Below, piece after piece: positions 5,576 to 55,654 of a DNA stretch of 64,000 nt. Numbering within the stretch: the stretch's first letter is position 1; every line of letters begins with the position of its first letter. The stretch comes from an uncultured Actinomycetota bacterium (lineage in GTDB: Bacteria; Actinomycetota; Actinomycetes; JAHEKZ01). The notes beneath the pieces are model-generated. The model was not told the DNA's origin. It did no database searches and was given only the letters and a program-made list of their open reading frames with translations. The stretch is from positions 72,673 through 136,672 of the forward strand of contig CAWGPZ010000006.1 of the NCBI GenBank assembly GCA_963824605.1, given 5' to 3'. Made by a program: the position numbers and the translations under genes.

Positions 5576-5671
5576 GCCCGCCCTGATCGACGCCTGACCT
5601 GCCCCGGTATCCTTCTGGGGCCGGTGCGCGGCGTCCTTGCCGCGACCGTTCAGTCCAAGGAAGAGATCACT

Positions 5672-5770: not shown

Positions 5771-5803
5771 TCGCAAGTAGCGCTGAGCCGGCAGGAGGTA
5801 CCC

Positions 5804-7860: not shown

Positions 7861-7871
7861 TAAGTTGCCGG

Positions 7872-33813: not shown

Positions 33814-33818
33814 TCCTC

Positions 33819-36500: not shown

Positions 36501-36514
36501 GTCCGAACTGTCTG

Positions 36515-37933: not shown

Positions 37934-37986
37934 GTGTGCTGAGGCCATAGCGTCATCCAACTCACACGTTGTGGTGCCAGGACGGG

Positions 37987-38955
37987 TCAGCCGACTGAGG
38001 CCTTCTTCGTCTCCTCGATGATCGCGGGAAGAACCTTGCTGACGTCGCCGATGATGGCGTAGTCGGCGTAGCCCATGATCGCGGCTTCGGGGTCGGTGTT
38101 GATGACGATCATCGTCTTGGAGTTACGGCACCCGGCGATGTGCTGCGTGGCTCCGCTGATGCCGCAGGCGATGTAGAGGTCGGGCGCGATCTTGGTGCCC
38201 GTCTGGCCCACCTGCTCGATGTGCGGACGCCAGCCGTTGCCGGTGACGACGCGCGAGCAGCCGATCGTGCCGCCGAGCAGCTCGGCAAGCTCTTCCAGCG
38301 GTGCGAAGCCCTCGGCGCTGCCGACTCCCCGTCCGCCGGCCACGACCACCTTGGCGTCGGCCAGCGAGACGCCTGACGACTCGTCGGTGGCCTCGGCCTG
38401 CTTGGCCACGACCAGCAGATCGGCGTCGGCCAGCTCGGGAGTGAACTCGGCGACCTCACCGGCGCCGGAGCCGCCAGGTTCGGCGGCCACCGTGTGCGGC
38501 ACGAGCGTTACGAGCGCGGGTGCGCCGTGCAGGTTCGCCTCTTCGATGAGGCTGCCACCCCAGCGTGCGCGCACCACCTGCGTGGGCGAGCCCGGCGTCA
38601 CCTTGACGCAGTCGGCTGCCACCGGCAGGTCGGTGAGCGCGCCCAGGTGAGCCATCACCTCGTTGCCGCGTGGAGAGCCGGCCGCGAGGACCACCGATGC
38701 ACCGGTCCGAGACGCCACCTCGGACGCCGCGCGCGCTGCGGCAACTGGGGCGTAGCTGGTGAACACATCGTGCACAGCGACATGCACCGTGGCCACGCCT
38801 TGCGCACCAAGCGCAGCCGCGACGCCGGCGTCGCCGACGACGAGCGCCTCCAGTGGTTCACCGGTGGACGCCGCGAGCTCGCGCCCGTACGTCACCGTCT
38901 GCAACGAAGCCTCGTCGATCTCGCCATTCTCGTGGTCGACCAGTACCAGCACCAT
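37987..38955 (-). CDS. etfA: Electron transfer flavoprotein subunit alpha
   Basis: 322-aa ORF with the C-terminal FAD-binding region GGRGVGSAEGF..IACGISGATQHIAG. Confidence 0.9.
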   Translation of the reverse strand: MVLVLVDHENGEIDEASLQTVTYGRELAASTGEPLEALVVGDAGVAAALGAQGVATVHVAVHDVFTSYAPVAAARAASEVASRTGASVVLAAGSPRGNEVMAHLGALTDLPVAADCVKVTPGSPTQVVRARWGGSLIEEANLHGAPALVTLVPHTVAAEPGGSGAGEVAEFTPELADADLLVVAKQAEATDESSGVSLADAKVVVAGGRGVGSAEGFAPLEELAELLGGTIGCSRVVTGNGWRPHIEQVGQTGTKIAPDLYIACGISGATQHIAGCRNSKTMIVINTDPEAAIMGYADYAIIGDVSKVLPAIIEETKKASVG

Positions 38956-38956
38956 G

Positions 38957-39712
38957 TCAGATCACTCCGATCTGCTTGAAGATCTCAACGACGGCGGGAG
39001 CAGCATCGGGCCCGTTGCCCAGCACCTGCGCCTGCTTCGCCTTCATCGCCGGAACCTCGAGGCGGGTCTTCTCGAGCTTTGGCTCTGGTCGCTCGGGGTT
39101 CAACCGCTCGATCGGCTTCTTCTTGGCGCGGATGCGTCCTGGCACCGATGGGTACCGCGGAATGTTGAGCCCGTCGAGCACCGTCACCACCGCCGGCAGC
39201 GGTACCTCATACAGCTCGCGACCGGTCTTCACCGGACGCTCGAAGGTCGCCTTGCCGTCGGCGATCGTGATGCCCTTCACCCCGGTGGCGATCGGACGTC
39301 CGAGCTTGTGCGCGACGCGGATACCCACCTGGTAGCCGCTGGCGTCGGCCGACTCGTTGCCCATGATGATGAGGTCGAAGTCGGTCTCGTCGGCAGTGAT
39401 GGCATCGGCGATCGCGGACGCGGTGCCCTGCGGGTCCCACTCCTGCCCGTCGGTCTCGATCAGGATTCCGCGGTCGGCACCGATCGCCATCTGCTCGCGG
39501 ATCTGCTCCTCGGCGTCCGGAGGGCCGAGCGTCAGCACCGTGACGCTGCCGCCCTCCTTCTCGGCGATACGAACCGCCTCTTCGACGGCCACCTCTTCGT
39601 GGGGGCTGATCGTGAAGCCGAGCTTGGCCGACTCGATGTCGAGACCGTCCTCGGTGATCGTGAACTTGCCCCCGGAGAGGGGGACGCGTTTGATGCAGAC
39701 CAAGACATCCAT
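38957..39712 (-). CDS. etfB: Electron transfer flavoprotein subunit beta
   Basis: 251-aa ORF starting MDVLVCIKRVP.. with AEEQIREQMAIGADRGIL. It lies immediately upstream of etfA. Confidence 0.9.
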   Translation of the reverse strand: MDVLVCIKRVPLSGGKFTITEDGLDIESAKLGFTISPHEEVAVEEAVRIAEKEGGSVTVLTLGPPDAEEQIREQMAIGADRGILIETDGQEWDPQGTASAIADAITADETDFDLIIMGNESADASGYQVGIRVAHKLGRPIATGVKGITIADGKATFERPVKTGRELYEVPLPAVVTVLDGLNIPRYPSVPGRIRAKKKPIERLNPERPEPKLEKTRLEVPAMKAKQAQVLGNGPDAAPAVVEIFKQIGVI

Positions 39713-42231
39713 CAGGAGAGAATCCGCTCGTTCTTGGGGTCGAATAGGGGAGTGGCGCCGGCGACGGCGACGGTGACCGGGTAGTGGTCGCCGAGGTACT
39801 CGACGATCAGCTTGGTGCCCTCGACGGCGTACTCCGGCGGCAGGTAGCTCATGAGCACGTGCTTGCCGACGGACGGCGCTGAGCCGGCGCTGGTGACGAA
39901 CGACCGGCGTCCGTGCGCATCAGTGATCGGCCCCTTGTCGAGCGTGAGGATCGGCTCCTTGCCCATCATGTAGCGCTTTTCGCCGGTGCTGCTGGTGTGG
40001 TCGTCGACGGTCAGCGAGCACAGCGTGGCCACGGGGTCTTCGCTGCGGTGCTTGAGGTGCGACGCCTTGCCGACGAAGTCGGCCTCCTTGACCTTGGGCG
40101 GTGCCATACCGGCCTCGACGACGTTGAACTCGGTCTCGAGCTCTGTGCCGAAGGCTCGGTAGCCCTTCTCGATGCGGCCGGTCGTGCCGTAGACACCGAT
40201 GCCGACGGGGATCAGCCCGTGCTCCTGGCCGGCTTCCCACAGCGCATCCCACAGCTGCGCGCCCTGCTCCATCGGGACGTAGAGCTCCCAGCCGAGGTCT
40301 CCGACGTAGGAGATGCGGGACGCCAGCACCTTCAGCGAGCCGATCTCGATCGACTTGCAGGTGCCGAACTTGAACCCTTCGTGCGAGACGTCGTCGCGAG
40401 TGATCGACTCGAGGATCTGGCGAGCATTCGGACCCCAGATGCCGAGCGTGGTGAGCGCCGACGTCAGATCGGTGATCTGTGCCGTGCCGTCTTCTGGAAG
40501 GTTGTCGCGGAACCACTTGAGGTCGGCCATGCCGTGTGCGCCACCGGTGACGACGCGGTAGTGGTCATGGGCGAGACGCATGACGGTGAGGTCAGACTTG
40601 AAGCCACCGTTGTCCGACAGCACCGGGGTGTAGACGACGCGACCGATGGGAACATCCATCTGACGCATGCAGACGCGCTGCACCGTGTCGAGCGCACCGG
40701 GGCCCTGGATGTCGAACTCGACGAACGCGGTGAGGTCGACGAGGCCGGCCGTCTCGCGCATCTGCAGGTGCTCAGCATTGATGATCGGCGACCACCAGCG
40801 CGACTCCCACTCCGCCGTACGCGGCATGACGGCGTCACCGAACTTCTCGACCAGGCCCGCGTTGGTCTCGTACCAGAAGGGACGCTCCCAGCCGGCGGTC
40901 TCGTAGAACTCCGCGCCGAGCGCCTTCTGACGCTCGTAGTACGGCGACAGGCGCACGTTGCGGTTGGACGCCCACTGCTCGTTCGGGTGCACGATGCCGT
41001 AGGTCTTGTTGAAGCCCTCGGCGGTGCGGTCCTTGATGTTCTTGCGGGTCTTCTGGTGGTCGTAGAAGCGGGCGATGTCGGACGACTGCAGGTCGATCTC
41101 GGACTCGCCGCGCACCATCCACTCGGACACGGCCTTGCCGATACCGGGGCCTTCCTTGATCCAGACGGCGGAGACCGACCAGAGGTTCTTGACCTCGGGC
41201 GTCTCGCCGAGCAGCGGCAGGCCATCAGGCGTGAGCGACAGCAGGCCGTTGATCGCGTACTTCTGACCAACGGTCTCGTCGCCGACGATCTCTGGCATCA
41301 GCTCGAGGGCGTGCTCGTACTGCAGCTCGAAGTCTTCAGCGGTGAACGGGAACTCGGTCGGTGACAGCTGTGCCTCTTCGACCGAGGGAAGCTCTTCGGG
41401 GTCGTGCAGGATCGGGCGGTGGGCGTACGACCCGATCTCAAGGCCGTTGCCGTGCTGGCGCTCGTACATGTTGGTGTCCATGTCGCGCACGATCGGGTGC
41501 TCGATGTCGCCCTTGGCGTCGGCGAAGCGTGGAACCGGACCGACGTCGATCATCTGGTGCACGGCCGGTGTCAACGGAATGTTCGCGCCGGCCATCTTGG
41601 CCAGACGCGGTCCCCAGAGGCCCGTCGCGATGACGACGTACTCGGCCTCGATGGTGCCCTTGTCGGTCTCGACGGCGGTGATCTGCCCGTCGTTGACGAC
41701 CATGTCGGTGACCTCGGTGTTGGCGAAGGTCTGGAGCGCGCCCATCTCTTGCGCCCTCTCGCGCATGATCGTGCCCGCGCGCAGCGAGTCGACGACGCCG
41801 ACGCCGGGGGTGTAGAAGCCGCCGAGGATGACGTCCGGGTCCATGTAGGGGACGAGCTCAATGCACTCGGCGGGCGTGAGCATCTTGCAGCCGTCGATGC
41901 CGAATGACTTGGCCGACTGCATGCGTCGCCACAGCTCCTGCATGCGCTCCTCGGTGCGAGCAACCTCGATGCCGCCGCACTCGGTGAAGACGCCCATCTC
42001 CTGGTACTGGTGCACGCTGTCGAACGTGAGCAGCGCCATCTCCTTGGAGTGGTCCACCGGGAAGATGAAGTTGGACGCGTGCCCTGTCGAACCACCCGGG
42101 TTCGGCAGCGGGCCCTTGTCGATCTGCACCAGGTCGGTCCAGCCGAGCCGGGCGAGGTGGTACACCATCGCGTTGCCAACGATCCCGGCACCGATGATGA
42201 CGGCCTTGGCTCGTGAGGGGAGGGTGCTCAT
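39712..42231 (-). CDS. Dimethylglycine (or sarcosine) dehydrogenase/oxidase-type enzyme: FAD DAO domain fused to GcvT folate-binding aminomethyltransferase domain
   Basis: 839-aa ORF with the N-terminal AVIIGAGIVGNAMVYHLARLG. The C-terminal half is GcvT-like (ETAGLVDLTAF..YVGDLGWELY). Its stop and the etfB start share nucleotide 39712. Confidence 0.8.
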   Translation of the reverse strand: MSTLPSRAKAVIIGAGIVGNAMVYHLARLGWTDLVQIDKGPLPNPGGSTGHASNFIFPVDHSKEMALLTFDSVHQYQEMGVFTECGGIEVARTEERMQELWRRMQSAKSFGIDGCKMLTPAECIELVPYMDPDVILGGFYTPGVGVVDSLRAGTIMRERAQEMGALQTFANTEVTDMVVNDGQITAVETDKGTIEAEYVVIATGLWGPRLAKMAGANIPLTPAVHQMIDVGPVPRFADAKGDIEHPIVRDMDTNMYERQHGNGLEIGSYAHRPILHDPEELPSVEEAQLSPTEFPFTAEDFELQYEHALELMPEIVGDETVGQKYAINGLLSLTPDGLPLLGETPEVKNLWSVSAVWIKEGPGIGKAVSEWMVRGESEIDLQSSDIARFYDHQKTRKNIKDRTAEGFNKTYGIVHPNEQWASNRNVRLSPYYERQKALGAEFYETAGWERPFWYETNAGLVEKFGDAVMPRTAEWESRWWSPIINAEHLQMRETAGLVDLTAFVEFDIQGPGALDTVQRVCMRQMDVPIGRVVYTPVLSDNGGFKSDLTVMRLAHDHYRVVTGGAHGMADLKWFRDNLPEDGTAQITDLTSALTTLGIWGPNARQILESITRDDVSHEGFKFGTCKSIEIGSLKVLASRISYVGDLGWELYVPMEQGAQLWDALWEAGQEHGLIPVGIGVYGTTGRIEKGYRAFGTELETEFNVVEAGMAPPKVKEADFVGKASHLKHRSEDPVATLCSLTVDDHTSSTGEKRYMMGKEPILTLDKGPITDAHGRRSFVTSAGSAPSVGKHVLMSYLPPEYAVEGTKLIVEYLGDHYPVTVAVAGATPLFDPKNERILS

Positions 42232-42279
42232 GTCGGCGTCCCTTTCGTGGTTCTCTTCGGTTGCGGTGGACAGGTCTGC

Positions 42280-42942
42280 TTACAGCGACCGGCGGATCGA
42301 CCCTTCGAATCCGTCGACGTGGGTTTGCATGGCACTAGCGGCGCGGTCGGCGTCGCCGTCTCGGATGGCCTCGAGGATCGCGCGGTGCTCAAGGACAGCG
42401 TCCTCGAGGTGGCTCACCTTGTCGAGTGCCAGGAACCAGATACGCAGTGCGTGCATGTACTGCGCATCGAGTGCCGACTCGAGGAAGGCGTTGTGCGCCG
42501 CGTGATAGACGAAGCGGTGAATGCGCTGGTCGATCTCGATGAGTCGACGTCCCGCAGGCTTGACACTGACGGCGGCCAGCTCGTCGAAGAGGGCCTCCAT
42601 CTCGACGCGGTCGCCGTCAGTCAGGCGCTCGGCGGCCAAGCGAGCGGCGAAGGGCTCAAGGACGCAGCGCACCTCGGACAGCGACGCCAGGTCACGCGCG
42701 TCAGCCGGGGCGACGAACATGCCGCGACGTGGGTAGACCTCGACCAGATGGGCCTGGGCGAGTGCTCTGAGCGCTTCGCGCACCGGCGTGCGGCCGAGCC
42801 CGAGCCGATCCATGAGCTCGCGCTCGTCGACGAGGCTGCCTGGGGGGAGCTCGAGGGTGACGATCAGCTCGCGCACGGCGTAGTACGCCTGCTCGGACTG
42901 GGAGCGGGCGTCAGGCTGAAGGATCTCGACCGGTGAGGTCAC
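42280..42942 (-). CDS. GntR family (FadR/FCD subfamily) transcriptional regulator
   Basis: 220-aa ORF with a winged HTH (LPPGSLVDERELMDRLGLGRTPVREAL) and an FCD-type helical C-terminal domain. Confidence 0.85.
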   Translation of the reverse strand: MTSPVEILQPDARSQSEQAYYAVRELIVTLELPPGSLVDERELMDRLGLGRTPVREALRALAQAHLVEVYPRRGMFVAPADARDLASLSEVRCVLEPFAARLAAERLTDGDRVEMEALFDELAAVSVKPAGRRLIEIDQRIHRFVYHAAHNAFLESALDAQYMHALRIWFLALDKVSHLEDAVLEHRAILEAIRDGDADRAASAMQTHVDGFEGSIRRSL

Positions 42943-42993
42943 CTGAAAGATATATCAATCTCGCTGGCCTGTGTATACCCCTTGGCCAGACCG

Positions 42994-43008
42994 TTCCACA
43001 AGGTGGAA
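42994..43008. promoter_or_regulatory. Palindromic candidate operator TTCCAC-AAG-GTGGAA upstream of gntR-dmgdh-etfBA
   Basis: A perfect 6+6 palindrome lies about 50 bp upstream of the gntR start. The same half-sites recur in the iclR/mttB spacer. A nearby second inverted repeat is CTGGCC-N14-GGCCAG (42964..42989). Confidence 0.35.
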
Positions 43009-43051
43009 GCAGCGTCACTCGCCCGACATCCGGCCGGGGCGTCGCGGAAGG

Positions 43052-45121
43052 CTAGAACTCGGAGGCGACTGCCGCCGTTTCGGCCGCCTTCTTGGCGCGG
43101 TGCTGCTGGATCCACGCAGCACCCCACTCGTCGTGACCGAGCATCAGGTCGGCGCCCTTGACGGCCGTGACCACCTGCGGCGTGCGGGCGTCCATGATCG
43201 CGCTGGTCAGCCCAGCACGCATGGCCATGGGAATGAAGACCGCGTTCAGCGTGTGCCGGTCGGGCATGCCGAACGAGACGTTGGACGCGCCAAGGGTCAT
43301 GTTGACGCCGACCTGGTCGCGGATCATCGAGATCGCTTCCATGGTGCGGTCGGCGTGCAGCGAGTCGGCGCCGATCGGCATGGCCAGCGGGTCGATGACG
43401 ATGTCTTCGAGTGGGATGCCGTACTTCGATGTCGCGATGTCGACGAACCTCTTGACCAGCTCGACGCGGCGCACCGGGTCGATAGGGATCTCGGTCTCGT
43501 CGTTGGGCAGCGCGATGATCGCCGCGTTGTGGCGTTTGACCAGCGGCAGGATCAGCTCCATGCGGTCGTCCTCGACGGTGACGGAGTTGACCAGCGCCTT
43601 GCCCTCGTAGGCACCGAGTCCGGCCTCCAGCGCTTCGACCACGGACGAGTCGATGCAGAGCGGCAAGTCGGTGAGCGACTGCACGAGCGTGACGGCCTTT
43701 GCGAGCAGCTCGGCCTCATCGGTGAGCGGAACGCCCATGTTGACGTCGAGCACCATCGCGCCGCCGGCCACCTGCGCAGCAACGTCGGTCTCGACGGCCG
43801 AAAGATCTCCGGCCCGCAGCTGCTCTTGGAACGCCTTGCGCCCGGTGGGATTGATGCGCTCGCCGATGATGCAGAAAGGCTGGTCATCGCCGATGATGAC
43901 CTGCTTGCTGGCTGAGCTGAGAACCGTCTGCATGATGCTCCTGTTTCTCCATGTGTGCCGACGCTGACGCGATGGCACGTATCGTGCCGCGAACTTATCG
44001 ACGCGGCGAGTGGAAGGGTGTCTCGAGGGGCCCTCGTACTCGACGAGGGACAGTTCAGGGTCGGTGTCGTCGGGGGCTTCGAGGGTTTCTCCCTGCCAGC
44101 CCGCAGGGGTCCTGCGGTCGCGGCCGGTGAAGAGGTTCGTCCAGGACGCGTCGCCCTCCAGCTGGTTGTTCACCGGAGGGCGAAGATCGTGGATGTGCTC
44201 GCGCCACGACCGGGGGAGCAGCGGCAGCGTTCGGCTTCGCTCTTCTGCTTTGACCCAGACGCACCGCATCTCGGGGACGACCTCGCAGTGGCCGTTCTCG
44301 CGAACGCCGCCGCACGGACCGTTGCGCAGGGTCTTCGGGCAGGTCATCGGGCAGGTCATGCCGGTTGAGTGCAGGACACACTGCCCGCACATGCGGCAGT
44401 CCCACACCGGACCCTTGATGGCGTGCTCGATGACGGGCAGCAGCTTGGGCATGACGTCAGGCGCGGTGAGTGCGCGGCGGTTTTCGAGGAGTTCTTTGGC
44501 GCGGCGGACCGCGGTTGACGCGTCAGCTGCGTACCCATCAGCACCCACCGCGTCGGCGTACTCCTGAGTGACCGGAGCACCACCCACCATCACGATCACC
44601 TGATCGCGCACCCCAGCCTTCTCCAACGCATTGATGTTCGCCTTGAACATCGGCATCGTCGTGGTCAAGAACGCCGAGAACCCGACAATGTCCGGGGAAT
44701 GCTCCTCGATCGCGGCGACGAACTTCTCCGGAGCCACCTGCACCCCCAGATCAATCACCTCAAACCCCGCACCCTCCAACATGATGTTCACCAAGTTCTT
44801 CCCGATGTCATGCACATCACCCTTGACCGTGCCCATCAAGAACTTGCCCACCGTCTCAGCACCGGTCGCCGCCAACAACGGCCGCAACACCTCCAACGCC
44901 CCCGACATCGCCCGACCAGCGATCAACATCTCCGGCACGAAGAAGTCACCCCGCTCGAACCGGGCACCCACCTCCTCCAACGACGGAATCAACGCCTCGA
45001 ACAACAACGTCTCAGGACCCATCCCCAACCCAAGACCATCATTGGTCAACTCCAACACCGCCGGCGCATTACCCACCAACGTCTCGTCGAACAACCCCTT
45101 CAAAATCTCCTCAGGCGTCAT
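43052..45121 (-). CDS. Multidomain corrinoid methyl-transfer protein: B12-binding corrinoid module + Cys-rich MTHFR_C-like module + pterin-binding (methyl-THF:corrinoid methyltransferase, MtgA/AcsE-like) module
   Basis: 689-aa ORF. Residues 1-215 are cap helices plus a Rossmann fold with the DxHxxG motif (GDVHDIGKN) and GFSAFLTTT. Residues 225-335 read WDCRMCGQCV..GMTCPMTCPK..NGPCGG..HCEV. Residues 397-689 are pterin-binding: CIIGERINPTGRK, VLDVNMG and MTLGASNVSFGMP. Confidence 0.8.
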   Translation of the reverse strand: MTPEEILKGLFDETLVGNAPAVLELTNDGLGLGMGPETLLFEALIPSLEEVGARFERGDFFVPEMLIAGRAMSGALEVLRPLLAATGAETVGKFLMGTVKGDVHDIGKNLVNIMLEGAGFEVIDLGVQVAPEKFVAAIEEHSPDIVGFSAFLTTTMPMFKANINALEKAGVRDQVIVMVGGAPVTQEYADAVGADGYAADASTAVRRAKELLENRRALTAPDVMPKLLPVIEHAIKGPVWDCRMCGQCVLHSTGMTCPMTCPKTLRNGPCGGVRENGHCEVVPEMRCVWVKAEERSRTLPLLPRSWREHIHDLRPPVNNQLEGDASWTNLFTGRDRRTPAGWQGETLEAPDDTDPELSLVEYEGPSRHPSTRRVDKFAARYVPSRQRRHTWRNRSIMQTVLSSASKQVIIGDDQPFCIIGERINPTGRKAFQEQLRAGDLSAVETDVAAQVAGGAMVLDVNMGVPLTDEAELLAKAVTLVQSLTDLPLCIDSSVVEALEAGLGAYEGKALVNSVTVEDDRMELILPLVKRHNAAIIALPNDETEIPIDPVRRVELVKRFVDIATSKYGIPLEDIVIDPLAMPIGADSLHADRTMEAISMIRDQVGVNMTLGASNVSFGMPDRHTLNAVFIPMAMRAGLTSAIMDARTPQVVTAVKGADLMLGHDEWGAAWIQQHRAKKAAETAAVASEF

Positions 45122-45894
45122 GCCACGACCACCTTCCGGTTGCGGGGGCGTTCTGCTGGGTCGAGCGCGCGCGAGATGGCGCGGGTCTCAGTGATGATCA
45201 GACGCCCCACCCCGGCAATGCGGTTGCCGGTGAGGCGGACCGAGGGGCCGGTGACCGCAATGGCCGCCACCACAGTTCCTTCGGCGTCAGTGATGGGAGC
45301 AGCCACGGCCATCAGACCGGGCTCGAGCTCGTTGTCGGCAACGGCATATCCGCGACGCCGCACGCCCTCGAGGTCGGCCTCGAGGCGTTCGCGTGTCGTG
45401 ATCGTTCGGTCGGTACGTCGATCCAGACGTCCACGGGGCATCTGAACGGCGCCGTAGGCAAGGAACACCTTGCCGAGGGCCGAGCAGTGGAACGGGACGT
45501 CGCGTCCGACCCAGTTGGTGGCACCGAGAAGGAACCGGGAGTCGACCTGAGCGATCTGGTCGACCGCGACGGGGCCGGGAACCGCAAGGTTGACCGTCTC
45601 GCCCGTGAGCTCGCCGAGACGAGCCAGGTGCGGCTGGGCCAGCCGAAGCAGTGCGTCAGAACGCCCCGATCCCGCGTACCGAGCGAGCACCGGGCCCGGT
45701 CGAACCGCCGAGTCGCTGCCGCGTCGCACAAGCCCGTGACGCTCGAGGCTCGTGAGGATGCGGGACGCCGTGCTCTTGGGAAGCTCAGCGGTGGCTGCCA
45801 GCTCAGCGAAAGGCACAGGGTGATCGGCTTGGAGGACGGTGACCAGCAGGGTCGACGCCCGGTCGACGGCCTGCGTACCGGTGGGAGGAGCCAT
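45118..45894 (-). CDS. IclR family transcriptional regulator
   Basis: 258-aa ORF with an HTH (FAELAATAELPKSTASRILTSLERHGLV) and an IclR effector domain. Its stop overlaps the start of the corrinoid gene (ATGA). Confidence 0.85.
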   Translation of the reverse strand: MAPPTGTQAVDRASTLLVTVLQADHPVPFAELAATAELPKSTASRILTSLERHGLVRRGSDSAVRPGPVLARYAGSGRSDALLRLAQPHLARLGELTGETVNLAVPGPVAVDQIAQVDSRFLLGATNWVGRDVPFHCSALGKVFLAYGAVQMPRGRLDRRTDRTITTRERLEADLEGVRRRGYAVADNELEPGLMAVAAPITDAEGTVVAAIAVTGPSVRLTGNRIAGVGRLIITETRAISRALDPAERPRNRKVVVA

Positions 45895-45975
45895 TGGGTT
45901 CCTGTTCTGGGGCTGACGGATACTGGTGCGCTGACGGGGTGGTGGCGTGAGGCGCCTGCTTCGGCGCCGAGAAAC

Positions 45976-46032
45976 GGAACACGATGTTCTACTATGTGGA
46001 ACTCAGATTCCACGCTGCGATAGTAGGATTCC
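45976..46032. promoter_or_regulatory. Array of GGAAC/GTTCC-type half-sites including palindromes TTCTAC-TAT-GTGGAA and GTGGAA-CTCAGA-TTCCAC (iclR/mttB divergent control region)
   Basis: Read directly from the sequence: GGAAC acgat GTTCT ac tat GTGGAAC tcaga TTCCAC ... GGATTCC. The half-sites are spaced about 10-12 bp apart and resemble the classical IclR box TGGAAA-N-TTTCCA. Confidence 0.4.
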
Positions 46033-46089
46033 GACTCCGAGCGGTCAAGTGACCGCGCGAAATCGCACGGATGCCTGGAGGGTGCGCCG

Positions 46090-47530
46090 ATGTTCGTCAA
46101 CCGCATGCCGCGTTACGAGGTCCTGTCCGAGGACTCGATGGCCACCTTGGATCGCGGATGGCGACGCATCGTCAGTGAGATCGGCGTCGAGTTCATGAAG
46201 CCCGAGGCGCTCGACCTCTTTCGCGAGGCTGGTCAGAAGGTCGAGGGGGACAACGTCTTCTTCGACCCCGAGTGGGTGCTGGCCCAGGTGGCGAAGGCTC
46301 CGCGCGAGTTCGACATCCAGGCCCGCAACCCCGAGAACAACGTCCACATCGGTGGCGACCACATGGTGTTCTCCAGCGTCTACGGACCACCGTTCGTGCG
46401 CGAAGGCGCGGTGCGCCGCGAGGGCACCTTTGACGACTACCGCAACTTCGCCAAGCTGGCCCAGTCGTTCAGCGCCATCGACAGCGTCGGGGGAGTGGTC
46501 GCCGAGCCGAACGACACGCCGCTCGACTCCAGGCACCTCGACATGCTCTACGCGACGCTGACCCTCACCGACAAGATGTACATGGGAAACGTGGTCAGCG
46601 GGGTGAACGCCCGCGACACGATCGCCATGGGAGAGATCGTCTTCGGTGGCCGAGAGGCGCTCGAGCAGACGCCGGCCAGCATCTCGCTGATCAACTGCAA
46701 CTCACCCTTGCGGTGGGACGACCGCATGTTGGACGCGCAGTTCGAGTACTCCGCTGCCTTGCAGCCGGTTGTGCTGACTCCGTTCCTGCTGATGGGTGCC
46801 ATGTCGCCGGTCACGATCCCTTCCGCCCTGGCACAGCAGATCGCTGAGGCTCTGACGGGTATCGCGCTCTCACAGCTGATCCGGCCAGGGTCGCCGGTCG
46901 TGTTCGGATCGTTCCTCTCGAACATCGACATGCAGTCGGGCTCCCCGCAGTTCGGAACTCCCGAGTCGGCCATGGGCTTGCTGTGCACCGGTCAGATCGC
47001 CCGCCACTTCGGACTCCCCTTCCGCGGTGGGGGTGGCCTGAACTCGTCGCAGATGCCCGATGCGCAGGCGGCGTGGGAGGCGCTCATGACGATGATGCCC
47101 ACGTTCTTGTCGGGCACGAACTTCGTGATGCACACCGCCGGCTGGCTCGAAGGCGGGCTCGTCTCGTGCTTCGAGAAGTACGTCATGGACGTCCAGGTGC
47201 TCGAGATCCTGCAGAAGGAGTTCACGCCGCTCGAGATCACCGACGAAGACCTCGCCTTCGACGCCCACCAAGAAGTCGGGACACGGCGGGCACTTCCTCG
47301 GCGCCATGCACACGATGGAACGCTTCCGCACCTGCTTCTACCGGCCGTGGCTGTCGTCGTCGGACAACTTCGAGCGGTGGAACAAGAACGGCGCCAAAGA
47401 CACAGCGGCCAGGGCGAACGAGATCTACCACCAGAAGATCGACGAGTACGAGCAGCCGCCACTCGACGAGGCCATCCGCCAAGAGCTCGAGGACTACGTC
47501 ATCAGGCGACGCGCCGAGCTCGGCGACTAG
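46090..47530 (+). pseudogene. MttB-superfamily (non-pyrrolysine) quaternary-amine:corrinoid methyltransferase, probable glycine betaine type, with 1-nt frame disruption at about 47281
   Basis: ORF 46090..47595 is MttB-like up to ..DLAFDAHQEVG and then becomes Arg-rich nonsense. ORF 47306..47530 (MHTMERFRTCFYRPWLSSSDNFERW..) supplies the conserved C-terminus. Removing one base in GGGACACGG restores EVGHGGHFLGAMHTMERF. There is no in-frame TAG. Confidence 0.85.
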
Positions 47531-47539
47531 ACCCCACAA

Positions 47540-47581
47540 CGCGGAAGTTCCCTGGGGCTATAGCCCCAGGGAACTTCCGCG
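47540..47581. terminator. Bidirectional stem-loop terminator between convergent mttB and betaine-binding protein genes
   Basis: Perfect 19-bp inverted repeat, CGCGGAAGTTCCCTGGGGC-tata-GCCCCAGGGAACTTCCGCG. Confidence 0.75.
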
Positions 47582-47598
47582 TGACGAACTGCTGACGG

Positions 47599-48576
47599 TC
47601 AGCCGCCGTCGATCCAGGCAGCTACCTTGTCGGGGTTGTCGTCGATCCACTGCTGAGCGGCGTCCTCACCTGACATGCCGTCGTTCGCGATGTAGAGCGC
47701 CACCTGGTTCTGGTCGTCGTTCGTCCAGGTGAAGTTCGACACCAGATCGGCAGCCGGGCTGCCGGACGCCATGAAGTCGGCGCTCGCGATCTTGTCGAGG
47801 ATGTACTCGGGGTAGTCGCACGCGACGGTTGCCGGGTCGGCGTCGCAGCCTTCCTCCCACGCCGGGAGGTCGACCTTGACGAGCGGCACCTCGGAGAGGA
47901 ACCACTGTGGCTCGTAGAAGTAGCCGATGTAGAACTCCTTGTTCTCCTCGGCGTTGCGGAAGCCCTGGATCAGTGCGGCTTCGCTTCCGGCGTAGACGAC
48001 CTCGAAGTCGAGCTTGAGGTTCTCGACCAGAGCCTCGTCGTTGGTGACGAACGACGGGTCGCCGTCCCACAGCGTGCCCTTGTCGCCGGTCTCGGCAGTG
48101 GAGAAGTCACTCGCGTACTTGTTGAGGTTCTCCCAGTTGGTGATGTCGGGGTTCTCCTCGGCGAGCCACGGTGGCACGTACCAGCCGATGACTCCGACGT
48201 TTCCGTTGGGTCCGACGATGACCGCCGTCTCTTGCTTCTCGACGTACTCCTTCTTGAGGTCGTCGTGGCCCCAGTTCTCGATCACGACGTCAACCTTGCC
48301 AGAGCCGAAGCCCTGCCAGGCGATCTCTTCCTTGAGCTTCAGGTAGTTGGTGTTGCACCCCAGCTCCTGTGCGGCCACCTCGCCGACCACGTAGGCAGAT
48401 GCCTCGTAGCCGACCCATGGGTTGATCGCCATGTTGAAGTCACCGCAGTCGGCACCGCTGGCACTGCCACCGCTGTCAGCTTCTTCGATGTCGCCGCCGC
48501 CACAGGCGGCGAGCACCAGGCTCGCGGCGGCAGCCAAGGCGGCGGCGCGTCCGGCCCGTCTTCTCGTGATTCGCAC
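47599..48576 (-). CDS. Glycine betaine/choline ABC transporter substrate-binding lipoprotein (ProX/OpuAC type)
   Basis: Internal GTG of ORF 47599..48792, preceded by AAGAGGAG. It has a lipobox (LVLAAC) and an OpuAC fold with aromatic-cage-type residues (NPWVGYEAS, IENWGH, GWYVPPW). Confidence 0.85.
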   Translation of the reverse strand: MRITRRRAGRAAALAAAASLVLAACGGGDIEEADSGGSASGADCGDFNMAINPWVGYEASAYVVGEVAAQELGCNTNYLKLKEEIAWQGFGSGKVDVVIENWGHDDLKKEYVEKQETAVIVGPNGNVGVIGWYVPPWLAEENPDITNWENLNKYASDFSTAETGDKGTLWDGDPSFVTNDEALVENLKLDFEVVYAGSEAALIQGFRNAEENKEFYIGYFYEPQWFLSEVPLVKVDLPAWEEGCDADPATVACDYPEYILDKIASADFMASGSPAADLVSNFTWTNDDQNQVALYIANDGMSGEDAAQQWIDDNPDKVAAWIDGG

Positions 48577-48616
48577 TCGAACTCCTCTTATTCGGGCCGC
48601 AGGGGTGCGGCGTGGG

Positions 48617-50797
48617 TCAGGCACTTTCAGCGCGTCCGTAGCGCGCTGCGGTATGGACGGTGATGCGGTCGAGCATGATCCCGAGCGCCGTGATGGCGAT
48701 CCCGGCGGCGAGGCCCTTCCCGAAGTCTTCTCTCTGTGAGAAGCCGTTGATGACGAGGAAACCGAGTCCGCCGCCACCCACCAGGCCGCCAATGACGACC
48801 ATGGACAACACGAAGAGCAGGCCCTGGTTCGCTGACAGCACGATCGAGCCTTTCGACATCGGCAGCTGCACCTTGCGGATCATCTGCCAGCGACTGGTGC
48901 CGAGCGCCTGTGCGGCCTCCACGGTGGGCCCTGACACACTGCGGACGCCGTCGGCAGTGATCTTGATCGCCACCGGTGAGGCATAGAGAACCGCCGCGAT
49001 GATGGCCAGGAACCGGCCGGCGGGAAACAGAGCGAGGGCCGGCACGAGGTAGACCAAGGAGGGCAGAGTCTGCAGCCCATCGAGGAAGGGACGCACCATC
49101 GCGTCCACCCGGCGGCTGCGACCCATCCACACCCCGATCACGATGCCGAAGATCATGACGAAGAGCGTGGCCACCAGTGTCATCGTGAGCGTGACCATCG
49201 AGTCGTTCCAGAGGCCGACGGCAAAGATCAGTGAAAGACAGGACGCGGCCGGGATCAGGGCGCCGCCACCACCGACAGCAGCCGAGCCGATGAGCAGCGC
49301 CAGGACGACACCCCAGTAGATGACCCAGGACATGTCCAATGGGCTGTTTGCCCAGTAGCCCGACATCAAGACTGCGACCGCGCCCAGCGCCACGGCCGTT
49401 GCCAGTCGGGGGGTGGGGGCTTTGCCGGCACCGCCGAGCAGGATCGCGATCGCCAGGATGCCGAGTGACACGAGCCACCAGGGCGATTCGACGAACCAGG
49501 CATCCAGACCCAGGGGTGGGTTCAGGAAGACCTCGGTGAACGCGTCGCTGAGCCAACGGGTGAACGAGCCGATGGAACTGGCGATGGAGTCGGTGACGTC
49601 GTTCATCCAGTTCGCGATGTTCCGTCCCAGATCGCTCTCGGGGAACACGTTCCATCGCAACTGGTTGTGCGAGATGACCGCCACCACGACAACCACGGCA
49701 GCGGAGATGCCGAGAATGAGGCGTCGGCGCTTCTCGTCGACGTTCCGTCGCGAGGTTGCCTCCGAACGCTCTCCGGCGGCTGCAGTGGCCCGGTCGAGCA
49801 TGATCGCCATGAATACGATGCACATGCCGCTGACGAACGCGATTCCGACGTTCAGGACGCTCAGTGCCTCGATGATCGGGATACCGAGGCCAGGACCGGC
49901 GATGAATGCGGCGATGATGGCCATCGAGAGTGCGGCCATGATGGTCTGGTTCAGGCCCACGATGATCGTGCGCCTGGCCATGGGCAGCTGCACCTTGGTC
50001 ATCAACTGCGACGACGTCGACCCGAGGGCGGTCGTCGCCTCGATGGTGCTGGGCGAGACGGTGCTCAGCCCGTAGGCCGAGATGCGGATCAGCGGCGGAA
50101 GGGCGTAGATCAAGGTGGCAACGACTGCGCCAGGGTTGCCGATTCCGAAGATGAGCACGAGCGGTCCGAGGTAGGCGAACGACGGCATCGTCTGCATCGT
50201 GTCGAGCACGGGCGTCAGCGCGGAGGTCACACGTTTGCTACGCGACATCCAGATGCCGGTCGGGAGACCGATGAGTACGCAGATCACCACCGAGACACCG
50301 GTGATGATCAGGGTGTCGATGCTCTTCTCCCAGTAGCCGAGCCAGCCGAACGAGAGCATGACGGCCAAGGCCAAGATCGCAATGCGCAGGCCGGAGAACG
50401 CGTAGGCGACCCAGACGGCGAGCGCGACGACGCCGGCCCAGCCCACCTGGGCGACACCTTGGGGTCGGCTCGAGTCGGAGACGAAGATGTTCTGCAGCTG
50501 GGTGACCGTCCAGTCGAGAGCCTCGCTGATCCAGTCGATGGGCAGGAAGATCGGGTTGCCGTTGAACTTCGCCGTCTCGATCGTGTTGCGCAGCTCGTTG
50601 AGCCACTCCTGGAACGCCGTCAGCTGTGAGACGGGGAGGTCTTGAGTGCCCTTGCCCTGGAAGATCACCCCGAGCACGACCCAGACAGTAACGACGACAC
50701 CAAGGGCGATCCAGCGCAGTCGGCTGCCGCTCTCGTCCTCAGGTGGCGGGGGAGTCTCCTCGACGGGGTGCTCCACCTCGGTGAGCTCGATGGTCAC
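48617..50797 (-). CDS. Glycine betaine/proline ABC transporter permease, tandem-duplicated (two BPD_transp_1 domains)
   Basis: 726-aa membrane ORF with two EAA-loop-type segments ([23 protein letters not shown] and [23 protein letters not shown]). Confidence 0.85.
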
Positions 50798-51867
50798 GAG
50801 GGCTTCTCCTCGGCCACGATCACCCGCAGGATGTCGTCCTGGTCGACGATGCCGAGAAGCTCTCCGTTGTCGACGACTTTGACGGGGTCGACGGCGTCGA
50901 TGACGCGACGCGCAGCGTCACGCACGATCGTGTCCGGCGCCATCTCGGGGCCGGTAAGGGCCTCGTCGGGTCGAGGTGGCCGCATCACCCAGGCAAGCGT
51001 CAAGACGTGCGAGCGTGGCACCTCGCTGACGAAGTCGCGCACGTAGTCGTCGGCGGGGGTGGCAACGACCTCGGCCGGCGTCCCCATCTGCACCAGTGCT
51101 CCGTCGCGCATGATCAGAATGCGATCACCCAGCTTCAGGGCCTCAGCGAGGTCGTGGGTGATGAAGACCATGGTCTTGCCGACCTCGTGGTGCAGCCGAA
51201 TGACCTCGTTCTGCATGTCTCGACGAATGAGCGGGTCGAGCGCAGAGAACGGCTCATCGAAGAGCAGGATCGACGGGTCGACCGCGAGGGCCCGGGCAAG
51301 GCCCACTCGCTGCTGCATCCCGCCGGAGAGCTGGTCGGGATAGGCGTTCTCGTTGCCAGACAGCCCGACGAGGTCGACCATCTCCTGGGCGCGGTCGCGG
51401 CGGTCGGTCTTGGACGCGCCTCGCACTTCCAGGCCGTACGCCACGTTGTCTATGACCTTGCGGTGCGGCAGCAAACCAAAGTGCTGGAAGACCATCGAGA
51501 CGTGATGGCGCCGCAGCTCACGCAGCCTGGCGTCCGACATGGCCACGACGTCTTCGCCGTCGATCATGACCTGGCCCGCCGTGGGTTCGATCAGCCTGGT
51601 GAGGCAACGGACGAGAGTCGACTTGCCCGAGCCGGACAGACCCATGACGACGAACACCTCACCAGGAGCAACGTCGAAGCTAACGTCACGAACGGCGGCC
51701 GTACACCCAGTCTTGGCCAACAGCTCGGAGCGCGAGAGGTCTGCGTCAGGCGACCCGACGACCTTGTCCGCCCGTGGACCAAAGACCTTCCAGAGATCGG
51801 TCACAGTGAGGGCGGATTGCCCGTTCGTGGACGCCGTCTCGCCGACGTCGTCGACCGTGGCGGTCAT
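50794..51867 (-). CDS. Glycine betaine/proline ABC transporter ATP-binding protein (ProV/OpuAA) with C-terminal CBS pair
   Basis: 357-aa ORF with Walker A (GLSGSGKST), the signature (LSGGMQQRV), Walker B ([11 protein letters not shown]) and a CBS-like tail. Confidence 0.9.
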
Positions 51868-53565
51868 GAGGATGCTCCTTCATTGCGGGGGTCACCAGGT
51901 GGGTAGAGCGGGGAGCCTTCGTCGTAGCGGTAGAAGGGTGCCTCGGAGGGGGCAAGCGGAGTGTTGCCGATGATCAGGTCGGCAGCCTTCTCGGCGAGCA
52001 TCATCACCGGGGCGTAGATGTTTCCGTTGGTCACGTACGGGAAGGAGCTCGCATCGACGACGCGCAGACCCTCAATGTCATGGACGTTCATCGTTGCGGG
52101 ATCGAGTGACTGCGTCGTCATCGACGCCCATCTTCGCGGTGCAGGAGGGGTGCAACGCCGTTTCGGCATCGTTGCGCACCCACTCGAGGATCTCGTCGTC
52201 CGTCTCGACGGATGGGCCGGGGGAGAGCTCGCCGGCGTTGAAGGGCTCGAAAGCAGGCTGCGTCAGGATGTCGCGTGCCACGTGAACGGCCTCGGTCCAC
52301 TCGCGACGGTCCTGGTCGGTCGACAGGTAGTTGAACTGCATCGAGGGGTGCTCGAGCGGGTCGGTGGAACGGATCTTCACCCACCCTCGCGCGTCGGAGT
52401 ACATGGGGCCGATGTGCACCTGGTAGCCGTGGCCCTCGGTGGGCGACGTGCCGTCGTACCTGATCGCAATCGGCAGGAAGTGGAACATCAGGTTGGGGTA
52501 CGAGACGTCGTCGTTGCTGCGCGCGAAGCCGCCACCTTCGAAGTGGTTGGTGGCTCCGAGACCCTTGCGCTGGAAGAGCCACTGCGCACCGATGCCAGGG
52601 CGCTTCCACCACGCCAGCCCCGGAGCGATTGAGACGGGAAGCTTGCTGGCGTACTGGATGTAGACCTCGAGGTGGTCCTGCAGGTTCGCGCCAACACCCG
52701 GTAGGTCTGCGACCACGTCGATTCCGAGCGACTGCAGGTGAGCGGCATCGCCGACACCTGACAGCTGCATGAGCTGCGGGGTATTGATGGCTCCACCGCA
52801 CAGGATGACCTCGCCGGCCTGCACCGAGCGCTTCATGCGTCCGGCGCGGAGATACTCGACGCCGACTGCTCGCTTGCCGTCGAAGACCACTTTCGTGGCG
52901 TGAGCGAGCGTCTCGACGTCGAGGTTCTTGCGATCCATGACGGGGTGCAAGTAGGCGCGTGCGGCGCTCAACCGGCGCCCACGATGGATGTTGCGGTCGA
53001 ACTTGGCGAACCCCTCTTGGCGGTAGCCGTTCACATCGTCGGTCAGCGGGAAGCCGGCCTGTTGCGCCGCTTCGAAGAATGCCCCGAAGAGCGGGTTCTT
53101 GGCCGGCCCGCGCTCGAGAACCAGTGGACCGCTGCCGCCGCGCCACTCGTCGGCGCCGGCGAGGCAGTTCTCCATGCGCTTGAAATAGGGCAGGCAGTGG
53201 GCGAAGTCCCAGTTCTCCATACCCTTGTCGGCGCCCCAGCGTTCATAGTCCATGGGGTTTCCGCGCTGGAAGATCATGCCGTTGATGCTGCTGGAGCCCC
53301 CAAGAACCTTGCCGCGCGCGTGAAAGATGCGCCGATTGTTCATGTAGGGCTCTGGGTCGGTCTCGTAGCGCCAGTCGTAGAGTCGACTGCCGATCGGGAA
53401 GGGCAGCGCGGCCGGCATGTGGATGAACGGATCCCAGATGAAGTCGGGACGTCCGGCCTCCAGCACCAGCACCGAGGTGCCGGGGTCGGCACTCAACCGG
53501 TTGGCAAGGGCTGACCCGGCTGAGCCACCACCGACGATGACGATGTCGTAGCGGTCGTCGCTCAT
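51864..53565 (-). pseudogene. betA: Choline dehydrogenase (GMC oxidoreductase) with 1-nt frame disruption near 52105-52111
   Basis: [33 protein letters not shown] lies in ORF 52078..54021. The conserved C-terminus [29 protein letters not shown] lies in ORF 51864..52169, in another frame. Confidence 0.85.
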
Positions 53566-53596
53566 GCGGCGGCTCCGGGGTGTGAGGGACTGAGGG

Positions 53597-55069
53597 TCAT
53601 TTGGCGCCGAACCAGTGTTGGGGAGCCGGCGCGATGTTCCGCCAGATGTGCTTGGTCTCGCGGTACTCGGCCAGGCCGTGGTGGCCCAGCTCGCGCCCGA
53701 ACCCGGACTGCTTGTATCCACCCCACTCAGCCTGCGGCACGTACGGGTGGAAGTCGTTGATCCACACCGTGCCTGCGCGAAGACCTGCGGCCACCCGGTC
53801 TGCCTTGGCCGCATCCGACGTCCACACGGCACCGGCGAGCCCGTAGTCGGTGTCGTTGGCCAGGCGCAGCGCCTCGGCCTCGTCGGTGAAGGTCTCGACC
53901 GTGAGGACGGGACCGAAGGACTCTTCGCGCACCACCCGCATGTCGGGGGTGCAGCGGTCGAACACGGTGGGCAGGTAGTAGTAGCCGTCGGCCAGCTCCG
54001 CATCGTCCGGCCGACGCCCACCGCAGCGCAGTTCGGCGCCTTCGGCGACCCCCGCTGCGACGTACGCCTCGACTTTGGCTCGATGCCCCTCGGAGGTCAG
54101 AGGACCGGTCTCGGCCTCCTTGTCGAACGGCCCGCCGAGGCGGATTTCTTGGGCTCTTCGGACGACCTCGTCGACGAAGGCGTCATGGATCGACTCCTCG
54201 ATGAGCAGTCGGGCACCGGCGGAGCAGACCTGGCCGGAGTGCAGGAAGACCGCCGTCAGTGCCATGTCGAGTGCGGCGTCCCAGTCGGCGTCCGCGAAGA
54301 CGATGTTCGGGTTCTTGCCTCCGAGCTCGAGCGCCACCCGCTTCACGGTCGGGGCGGCCGACGCCATGATCAGGCGTCCGGTGACGAGCCCGCCGGTGAA
54401 CGACACGAGATCGACATCGGGATGCGACGAGAGCAGCGCTCCGACGTTTGGCCCCGTGCCCAGCACGAGGTTGGCAACACCGGCGGGCAGCCCGGCAGCC
54501 TCGAGCTCGCGCATGAGCAGGATGGCCGTGGAAGGGGTCAGCTCGCTGGGCTTGAGGACGAAGGTGTTTCCGGCGGCGAGAGCCGGCGCCACCTTCCACG
54601 ACGTTTGCAGGAGCGGGTAGTTCCAGGGCGTGATCAGCCCGCAGACCCCCACGGGCTCGTGCACGATGCGGCTCTGGACATCGGGTCGGTCGACGTCGAC
54701 GTCGCGATCGTCGTCCTCGGCCGCGAGCTTGGCGTAGTAGCGGAACACAGCCGTGACGTCGGCGAGGTCGTATTCAGCCTCGACCAGGCGTTTTCCGGTG
54801 TCGAGCGCCTCAGCGCGAGCGAACTCGTCGCGGTGTCGCTCAAGGGCGTCCGCCACTCGGTCGAGCAGCGCGCCGCGCTCGGCCGGAGGCGTCGAAGCCC
54901 ATGGCCCGTCATCGAACGCCGTGCGGGCGGCCTCGATCGCCGCCTCGGTGTCTTCGCTCGCGCCCTCATCGACAGTGGCGACCAGTGAGCCGTCCGCCGG
55001 ACAGCGAATCTCGCGCGTGTTGCCGTCACGCGCGCTGGTCCAGATTCCACCAATGAAGAAGTCGGGCAC
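53597..55069 (-). CDS. betB: Betaine aldehyde dehydrogenase (NAD-dependent aldehyde dehydrogenase family)
   Basis: 490-aa ORF with ALDH motifs (ELGGKNP and the catalytic Cys in GQVCSAG). The assignment to betaine aldehyde rests on context, upstream of betA and proVWX. Confidence 0.8.
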
Positions 55070-55190
55070 TCGGTTCCTCTCGGCCGCGGGTGCCCCTCAC
55101 CCTGCTGTGACCGCGTCCCGCCGTCAAGGGAACGTTGCGAGGACGTGACGTTGGTTCCACGCTTAGACCTCTGGTCAGATCCGCCCTAGT

Positions 55191-55640: not shown

Positions 55641-55654
55641 TCGATCGAGGGGTC

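Follow-up and report, generated by a model that had tools for sequence, protein, structure and literature searches.

A choline and betaine gene cluster with a predicted MtgB-like, B12-dependent demethylation system at the menD-menF junction of an uncultured actinomycete

B12-dependent demethylation of glycine betaine by MttB-family enzymes was first described in anaerobes, the example being MtgB of Desulfitobacterium hafniense (PMC12478193, PMC13080624). Mausz et al. (PNAS 2025) reported from proteomics and from mtgC and mtgD knockouts that Ruegeria pomeroyi uses MtgBCD, and that the mtg genes have a wide distribution and high expression in ocean waters, with 5% of mtgC reads assigned to Actinomycetota (PMC12478193). 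A 2025 preprint describes an MtgBCD system in Phaeobacter inhibens (bioRxiv 10.64898/2025.12.19.695462). Here we describe a choline/betaine gene cluster in a 64-kb stretch of DNA from an uncultured Actinomycetota bacterium (contig CAWGPZ010000006.1), which as a whole is called the window. A sequence-only reading of the window had proposed a corrinoid-dependent betaine demethylation step of a kind characterised so far in anaerobes. Since R. pomeroyi is aerobic (PMC12478193), the mechanism is not confined to anaerobes and that argument for novelty falls. The remaining interest lies in the actinomycete version itself, including a variant with neither the corrinoid activase RACo nor MetF at the locus, in a putatively altered aromatic cage and in the cultured carriers.

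Our analysis indicates that the window probably holds a chromosomal, accessory choline/betaine catabolic cluster in the junction between menD and menF, with B12-dependent demethylation by an MtgB-like system. Judged by its sequence, this system is the actinomycete counterpart of the MtgBCA of anaerobes and the MtgBCD of Rhodobacterales.

The betaine cluster and its closest described systems

Using Pfam and NCBIfam scans we found that the interval between menD and menF (36501-58349) contains a choline/betaine gene set. The same scans bore out the gene content and order of the sequence-only reading, namely betB-betA-proV-permease-proX, mttB facing iclR, the corrinoid and pterin functions, gntR, the dimethylglycine enzyme and etfBA. 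The bounds given for the interval were too small, as the block also has a flavin amine oxidase gene, a 146-amino-acid (146-aa) open reading frame (ORF) and a P-type ATPase gene. The genes of the betaine part are the following.

37987-38955, minus strand: etfA, electron transfer flavoprotein (ETF) alpha subunit (PF00766 and PF01012)
38957-39712, minus strand: etfB, ETF beta subunit (PF01012, E=1.1e-37)
39712-42231, minus strand: dimethylglycine oxidase/dehydrogenase-family enzyme (Pfam domains DAO, FAO_M, GCV_T and GCV_T_C)
42280-42942, minus strand: GntR/FCD regulator (PF00392 and PF07729)
43052-43933, minus strand: pterin-binding methyl-corrinoid:tetrahydrofolate methyltransferase of the MeTr/AcsE type, about 290 aa (PF00809; own AGGAG ribosome-binding site and ATG)
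43995-44452, minus strand: DUF5981 protein, MTHFR C-terminal/MetV-like and Cys-rich, 152 aa (PF12225, E=1.9e-24)
44457-45121, minus strand: corrinoid (B12-binding) protein, 221 aa in near-identical strains (PF02607 and PF02310)
45118-45894, minus strand: IclR regulator (PF09339 and PF01614), with an ATGA overlap with the start of the corrinoid gene
46090-47530, plus strand: MttB-superfamily, non-pyrrolysine, MtgB-like methyltransferase, 479 aa after removal of an extra G (PF06253)
47599-48576, minus strand: proX-like OpuAC substrate-binding protein (PF04069; start placed by a 324-aa protein of the near-identical contig L168)
48617-50797, minus strand: ProW/ChoW-like permease of 726 aa with two fused BPD_transp_1 domains (PF00528 twice)
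50794-51867, minus strand: proV, ABC transporter ATPase with a CBS domain (TIGR01186, 363.4 bits against a subfamily cut-off of 326.6)
51864-53565, minus strand: betA, choline dehydrogenase (TIGR01810, 765.8 bits against an equivalog cut-off of 732)
53597-55069, minus strand: betB, betaine-aldehyde dehydrogenase type (PF00171; TIGR01804 is the top match, at 603 bits)

The mttB-family gene is divergent from iclR, as had been claimed. The ATGA overlap that the sequence-only reading saw between iclR and a corrinoid gene is also present; the single corrinoid/pterin gene that it described is not, and the region instead contains three genes. On the other side of mttB, the spacing of the genes for the OpuAC protein, double permease, ProV, BetA and BetB is operon-like.

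The mttB gene product matches PF06253 with 507 bits. Once a frameshift, described below, is repaired, 100% of the protein can be aligned with 479-aa homologues, a length that 112 of the top 120 homologues share. Its identity is 46% to PDB entry 4yyc and 42% to D. hafniense MtgB (2qne/9yce, E ~1e-102). Its match to the pyrrolysine-containing MttB 7xcl has E=4e-28. With TIGR02369 it scored 221.5 bits against an equivalog cut-off of 525, and the repaired frame contains no in-frame stop, so the protein is not assigned to the pyrrolysine MttB group.

Four betaine-binding residues of MtgB (Y97, R312, H348 and F356) are known from mutagenesis and a betaine-bound structure (PMC13080624). We found that Y97 (Y98 here), R312 and H348 are conserved. 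The latter two, which bind the carboxylate in MtgB, fall at exactly matching positions and do not vary among 112 homologues. The same 112 homologues invariantly carry Y98, Gly356 in place of F356, and Trp352 four residues upstream of the glycine; this tryptophan is shared with 4yyc (WLEGGL). This suggests an MttB-family protein with an altered aromatic cage, with Gly356 and perhaps Trp352. The system resembles the MtgB/MtgC/MtgA set of D. hafniense in its predicted core, a non-pyrrolysine, TIM-barrel MttB-superfamily enzyme that would use betaine to methylate its own corrinoid partner. It differs from that set at position 356 and in its tetrahydrofolate (THF) methyltransferase, which is of the MeTr/AcsE (PF00809) type, and D. 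hafniense is a strict anaerobe.

The corrinoid protein has a B12-binding_2 cap, a Rossmann-type B12-binding domain and the sequence DVHDIG, which fits the DxHxxG motif. It scores best against models of the MtgC_2, MtbC and pyl_corrinoid type, whereas the MtgC of Rhodobacterales is reported to be CmuA-like. The pterin component passes NF005719, a model of the MeTr/AcsE type, with 305.4 bits against a cut-off of 259. In this it resembles the MeTr (AcsE)/RACo pair of the Wood-Ljungdahl pathway, and relatives of the cluster encode RACo beside the pterin gene. However, methyl transfer is proposed to run from methyl-cobalamin to THF here, a small corrinoid protein of the single-domain type takes the place of CoFeSP as the partner, and the window has no RACo.

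The nearest solved structure to the 839-aa dimethylglycine enzyme is the N,N-dimethylglycine oxidase 1pj5, which matches over the full length (E=5.7e-166) and has its four domains, the folate-binding GCV_T part among them, in the same arrangement; the match to dimethylglycine dehydrogenase 4pab has E=1.3e-93. A point of difference is that the gene in the window is directly followed by etfB and etfA, which suggests that ETF rather than O2 may accept the electrons. The remaining genes resemble known bet/proU systems (BetA, BetB, ProVWX/ChoXWV) in that BetA passes its equivalog cut-off, ProV its subfamily cut-off, and an OpuAC binding protein is present. They differ in their context, which is catabolic and not one of osmoprotection, and in the fused double permease. 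This protein falls just below the cut-off of TIGR03416 (361.6 bits against 363). The fusion is retained in relatives at 669-726 aa, and contig L168 encodes the same 726-aa protein.

Together these families form a coherent set for the conversion of choline to betaine, dimethylglycine and sarcosine, as the sequence-only reading had held. In the proposed pathway the ABC transporter made of ProV, the double permease and the OpuAC protein would import choline or betaine, and BetA and BetB would oxidise choline to glycine betaine. The MtgB-like enzyme would then transfer a methyl group of betaine to the Co(I) of the small corrinoid protein, yielding dimethylglycine, and the MeTr/AcsE-type enzyme would pass the methyl group to THF. 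Dimethylglycine would be converted to sarcosine and methylene-THF by the dimethylglycine oxidase-family enzyme, with the electrons probably going to the adjacent EtfBA. The two halves of the cluster would be controlled by the IclR and GntR/FCD regulators. Within the window the MttB-family, corrinoid and pterin methyltransferase genes are the only candidates for the betaine step, also in agreement with the sequence-only reading.

The MtgBCD(E) systems of Rhodobacterales are similar in that an MttB-family enzyme, a small cobalamin protein and a PF00809 enzyme move a betaine methyl group to THF, there in aerobic hosts. In several of those taxa the genes are co-located with the later demethylation steps, a metF paralogue and corrinoid-reactivation genes (PMC12478193). 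The differences are that relatives of the window's cluster usually have a RACo-type activase in the operon, that alphaproteobacterial plasmid-borne homologues are only 44-47% identical to the MttB-family protein, and that MtgC and MtgD of Rhodobacterales double as a split methionine synthase together with MtgE, a protein not seen among the annotated genes of the window. This last comparison raises the alternative that the corrinoid and pterin proteins here mainly form a split methionine synthase, moving methyl groups from methyl-THF to cobalamin, with betaine demethylation as a secondary activity. MtgC and MtgD of R. pomeroyi are bidirectional and essential for methionine synthesis (PMC12478193), which is in favour of this alternative. 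However, our checks of the window genes and Pfam matches showed no MtgE-like gene among the block genes examined or at the 80 related loci described below, and the cluster, which IclR would control, adjoins catabolic bet genes. We consider this alternative very unlikely.

Several points weigh against the MtgB-like demethylation pathway. F356 of MtgB is one of two cation-pi residues, and in MtgB an F356L change raised the Km several hundred-fold (PMC13080624); the position is Gly356 here. The corrinoid protein falls below both NCBIfam cut-offs for MtgC (197 against 370 for NF047995 and 157 against 310 for NF047996), and BetB, at 603 bits, falls below the TIGR01804 equivalog cut-off of 668.6. 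By tblastn no RACo was found in the 64-kb window, MetF is likewise not in the window, and no homocysteine-binding, MtgE-like module was seen among the genes annotated there. The window therefore does not account for the re-reduction of cobalt or the oxidation of methyl-THF. In addition, four of the six frameshifts detected in the window lie within 8 kb of the betaine module. Finally, a literature search returned no paper on the actinomycete cluster itself, and the searchable literature contained no biochemical or genetic test of any actinomycete homologue.

Gene context in relatives

A scan of species-representative genomes showed that at least 592 encode a relative. We examined the best 80 of these loci, in which the highest identity was 97% and the window's own genome was not included, and counted the genes lying no more than 10 kb from the MttB gene. 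Among the 80 loci are those of cultured Nocardioides, Agilicoccus, Phycicoccus and Nostocoides as well as of many metagenome-assembled genomes. Examples of cultured carriers are Nocardioides aquiterrae JCM 11813, Nocardioides sp. Root1257 and Nostocoides jenkinsii Ben 74. The counts, out of 80, were as follows.

B12-binding protein: 72
Pterin gene: 69
IclR regulator: 69
RACo activase: 63, beside the pterin gene
betA: 58
betB: 53
proV: 53
DUF5981: 19
MetF: 18, adjoining DUF5981 as a MetV/MetF-like pair

The activase of the relatives has the Fer2, RACo_linker, RACo_middle and ASKHA domains of a corrinoid activase (for example at 4401-8420 of locus L009 and 5602-7554 of L053), and its carriers, in the range L004 to L083, include cultured aerobic Nocardioides. 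One of the fullest loci, L009, has the order etfB-DMGDH-GntR-RACo-pterin-MetF-DUF5981-B12-IclR, then MttB, then IclR-betA-betB-proV, where DMGDH is the dimethylglycine dehydrogenase-type gene. The window and the syntenic locus L006 have this gene together with the ETF genes, and L009 has it with etfB.

Linkage to betaine is thus seen on both sides of the demethylation step: betA and betB recur at more than half of the loci, and genes for the use of dimethylglycine are present in the window, L006 and L009. That the gene recurs beside genes for making betaine and for using dimethylglycine is the strongest argument that its substrate is betaine, and it bears directly on the alternative that the MttB-family enzyme takes another quaternary amine, such as proline betaine, carnitine, gamma-butyrobetaine or choline, while betaine is demethylated elsewhere by GbcAB, BHMT or an MttB paralogue. 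The superfamily does contain enzymes for carnitine, proline betaine, gamma-butyrobetaine and phosphocholine, in which R312 is kept and H348 often is but the aromatic pair is not (PMC13080624). The glycine at position 356 and an identity of just 42% to a validated MtgB also speak for another substrate. On the other hand, Y97 is kept together with R312 and H348, the linkage to betA and betB is tight and repeated and in fuller loci extends to a dimethylglycine-oxidising enzyme, and the block has no evident gene for the use of a different demethylation product. We consider another substrate to be unlikely, and keep betaine as the preferred one.

We found that RACo and MetF are not at the locus in the window, in L002 or in L006. 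The locus without them is a real difference of this lineage from most relatives in the case of RACo and from some in the case of MetF. In L002, a relative whose MttB is 90% identical, the gap between gntR and the pterin gene (2242-5509; 124-3391 in L003) contains genes for a MurT-like protein, a GATase_3/GatD-like protein and a peptidase of family S58. The same gap holds RACo in more distant relatives and nothing in the window.

These data allow a broader and more tentative proposal. In soil and freshwater Actinomycetes, among them the cultured aerobes Nocardioides, Phycicoccus and Nostocoides, a complete four-component corrinoid system like that of anaerobes (MtgB-like, MtgC-like, MeTr and RACo, the ATP-dependent activase), in some cases with MetV/MetF, may be the main route of betaine demethylation under oxic conditions. 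The sub-lineage of the window may have dropped RACo and MetF from the locus while keeping the Cys-rich DUF5981 protein between the corrinoid and pterin genes, and this protein might act as a redox partner. We regard this as possible, though not as the likelier outcome. If it is true, the B12 dependence of osmolyte turnover would extend well beyond marine Proteobacteria. If the cluster works as proposed, B12-dependent betaine demethylation would occur also in hundreds of actinomycete species of soil, freshwater and wastewater, where choline and betaine turnover, the one-carbon folate pools and the supply of B12 and cobalt would be tied together.

Frameshifts and gene structures

Six frameshifts were detected in the window, four of them in the betaine block.

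47278-47281: extra G in mttB
52107/52108: extra base in betA
about 44031: missing base in the DUF5981 gene
about 44465: missing base in the corrinoid gene
34144: extra A in menC, relative to loci L085, L087 and L088, outside the block
near 2235: frameshift in an ABC-transporter ATPase gene (2087-2681), outside the block

As read, the corrinoid, DUF5981 and pterin genes form a single ORF of 689 aa (43052-45121). This ORF is three genes in which two 1-nucleotide (1-nt) deletions put both stop codons out of frame, and the deletion at about 44465 does so to the TGA stop of the corrinoid gene. Contig L168, which is 99.8% identical over the DUF5981 stretch, has one base more and a separate gene for a 152-aa protein. 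One additional base near 44465 in both L166, also 99.8% identical, and L168 gives a 221-aa B12 gene, which is separate in both contigs. The pterin methyltransferase is a separate 288-aa gene in L002 and L003, and L002, whose locus is 84% identical in nucleotides, has the B12, DUF5981 and pterin genes all separate. Among the homologues in the protein database none joins the B12, PF12225 and Pterin_bind domains. A natural corrinoid-DUF5981-pterin fusion was therefore rejected, and the single corrinoid/pterin unit of the sequence-only reading is an artefact that frameshifts produced.

The mttB ORF as read runs from 46090 to 47595 and encodes 501 aa, and the Pfam and PDB alignments end at residue 398. 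The conserved C-terminus of the family (HGGHFLGAMHTMERF...) was found in the +1 frame, ending at 47530. The repaired MttB has a 100% identical counterpart in a 479-aa database protein (P0242) known from assemblies of JGI, ENA and Logan, contig L167 is 99.6% identical and does not have the extra G, and residues 1-479 are read in one frame at all 80 of the best genome loci. A programmed frameshift or pyrrolysine read-through was rejected on the near-identical strains, the single frame at 80 of 80 loci and the lack of an in-frame UAG. The GC3 frame plot confirmed the shift in mttB; it was too noisy to exclude shifts elsewhere. Compared with each of the four nearest contigs, the repaired mttB has 10-12 nt differences, all of them synonymous third-position changes, of which 4-5 lie beyond the shift. 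As this holds on both sides of the shift, mttB shows no sign of decay.

The end of the repaired gene also fits the DNA that follows it. Between the convergent mttB and proX lies a perfect 44-nt palindrome (47539-47582) with a 20-bp hairpin, for which an 86-nt fold gives -53.9 kcal/mol (z=-8.8). It starts 9 nt past the repaired mttB stop, reaches to 17 nt from the proX end, and is inside the false ORF extension. The palindrome is probably a bidirectional terminator, and its position 3' of 47530 is consistent with the repaired gene end.

In betA the last 80 codons are in a separate ORF (51864-52169), and tblastn aligns the gene in two frames. Contig L164, which is 98.7% identical, does not have the extra base and encodes a 571-aa BetA. 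Taken together, contigs L164-L168 are 98.7-99.8% identical over the relevant stretches and have intact genes for MttB (479 aa), BetA (566-571 aa), the B12 protein (221 aa) and DUF5981 (152 aa). Outside the block, menC (33840-34800) is split over two frames, with Enolase_like_N in the ORF 33603-34169 and MR_MLE_C in the ORF 34159-34800. The ABC-transporter ATPase gives tblastn matches in frames +2 and +3, with a stop soon after the Walker A motif.

By comparison with these contigs, the odd features of this copy, namely the 689-aa ORF, the 501-aa MttB and the split betA, are attributed to the four single-base indels. These are most probably consensus errors of the source assembly, because menC and the ABC ATPase are also frameshifted and the 98.7-99.8%-identical contigs are intact. 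MenC is required for menaquinone synthesis in a respiring actinomycete, and it is implausible that an organism respiring with menaquinone would have its menC frameshifted.

The alternative is that the frameshifts are real, so that the MttB-family, corrinoid, DUF5981 and betA genes are recent pseudogenes in a late decay that followed the loss of RACo and MetF from the locus. In support of this, four of the six frameshifts fall in 44031-52108, RACo and MetF are at the locus neither in the window nor in L002 and L006, and Pfam coverage shows the hem genes and the majority of the men genes to be intact. However, decay of the module leaves the frameshifts in the needed menC and in an unrelated ABC ATPase unaccounted for. 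At least four independent assemblies are intact at 98.7-99.8% identity, one of them encoding the repaired protein with 100% identity, and there are no nonsynonymous changes past the shift in mttB. Moreover, L002 has neither RACo nor MetF but keeps the module genes intact, and in both L002 and L006 MttB is full-length in one frame. The many single-member fused ORFs from long contigs in the protein database fit indel-prone assemblies as well. We consider real pseudogenes an improbable explanation, though a less remote one than a different substrate, and retain assembly errors as the preferred reading.

In the protein database (entries P0121-P0240), dozens of clusters with a single member join neighbours from the betaine cluster in odd combinations and lengths, mostly from long ENA contigs. 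These one-off fusions include B12 with pterin, IclR with B12, pterin with RACo and MTHFR with pterin. They look like frameshift fusions from indel-prone assemblies and not like real architectures. As a warning on method, single-base indels, probably of the assembly, here convincingly mimicked a multi-domain fusion protein and gave MttB a wrong C-terminus.

The menD-menF junction and the rest of the window

The flanks are as the sequence-only reading had claimed, with menD on the left and menF, menG and a menJ-like gene on the right (Pfam and NCBIfam). The flanking genes and the remaining genes of the block are as follows.

34797-36500, plus strand: menD, left backbone flank (TIGR00173, 422.7 bits against a cut-off of 244)
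36515-37933, plus strand: flavin amine oxidase (PF01593, E=9.8e-64), variable part of the block
55200-55640, plus strand: conserved 146-aa ORF, 100% identical in L164
55655-58345, plus strand: P-type ATPase, type II, Ca-ATPase-like (Pfam and NCBIfam), variable part of the block
58350-59588, minus strand: menF, isochorismate synthase, right backbone flank (TIGR00543, 274 bits against a cut-off of 224.75)
59727-60383: ubiE/menG, right flank
60679-61959: menJ-like FAD reductase, right flank
from 62441: nuoB/nuoC, right flank

The 146-aa ORF had no Pfam match. The idea that the block is an island was borne out by a comparison of the men region across relatives. We found that menD and menF are adjacent and convergent in seven loci (L090, L095, L107, L109, L134, L157 and L161), and that menF lies 479 nt downstream of menD in L121. 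The relatives with this adjacency are distant, their MenD being about 50-55% identical to that of the window. Within the clade of the window the junction is variably occupied. L084 has menD, the amine oxidase gene and etfA in that order, with an amine oxidase 100% identical to that of the window, while in L086 menD abuts etfA with no amine oxidase gene between them. On the other side, betB abuts menF in L006 with no P-type ATPase gene; the ATPase is present in L002. In L088 a tandem-Usp protein and a Na/Ca exchanger follow menD instead.

No marks of mobile elements were found at the borders, which have no integrase or transposase, again as the sequence-only reading had stated, and no tRNA or flanking direct repeat; a tRNA search found none in the window. 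The G+C content shifts only slightly, from 67.2-67.4% in the flanks to 65.7% in the block. A plasmid search found no close homologue on actinomycete plasmids. A plasmid origin was rejected, as the plasmid homologues are alphaproteobacterial only and all below 60% identity.

Identity along the block is mosaic. L084, which covers window positions 34628-39152, is about 93% identical over menD and about 99.6% identical from about 36310 onward. In L164, which covers 44996-55847, the IclR, MttB and BetB proteins are 100% identical and BetA is 99.8% identical over its first 486 residues. The OpuAC/ProX protein of the same contig is only 79% identical, and the transporter DNA at 50981-51761 only 77.6%. 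We read this pattern as a sign of recombination within the island, with replacement of alleles. On these comparisons the cluster is best described as accessory DNA that occupies a variable junction of the backbone and has been shaped by recombination.

The left two-thirds of the window are ordinary actinomycete core genes, including hemACDBL, ccdA-resBC and menA/E/B/C. An Rfam search of the 64-kb window at gathering thresholds returned no cobalamin riboswitch and no other element. At 5400-5800 of the window, upstream of an epimerase-like gene, lie two small conserved ORFs in one frame, which encode an excisionase/MerR-like HTH protein and a lysine/arginine-rich, bS22-like peptide.

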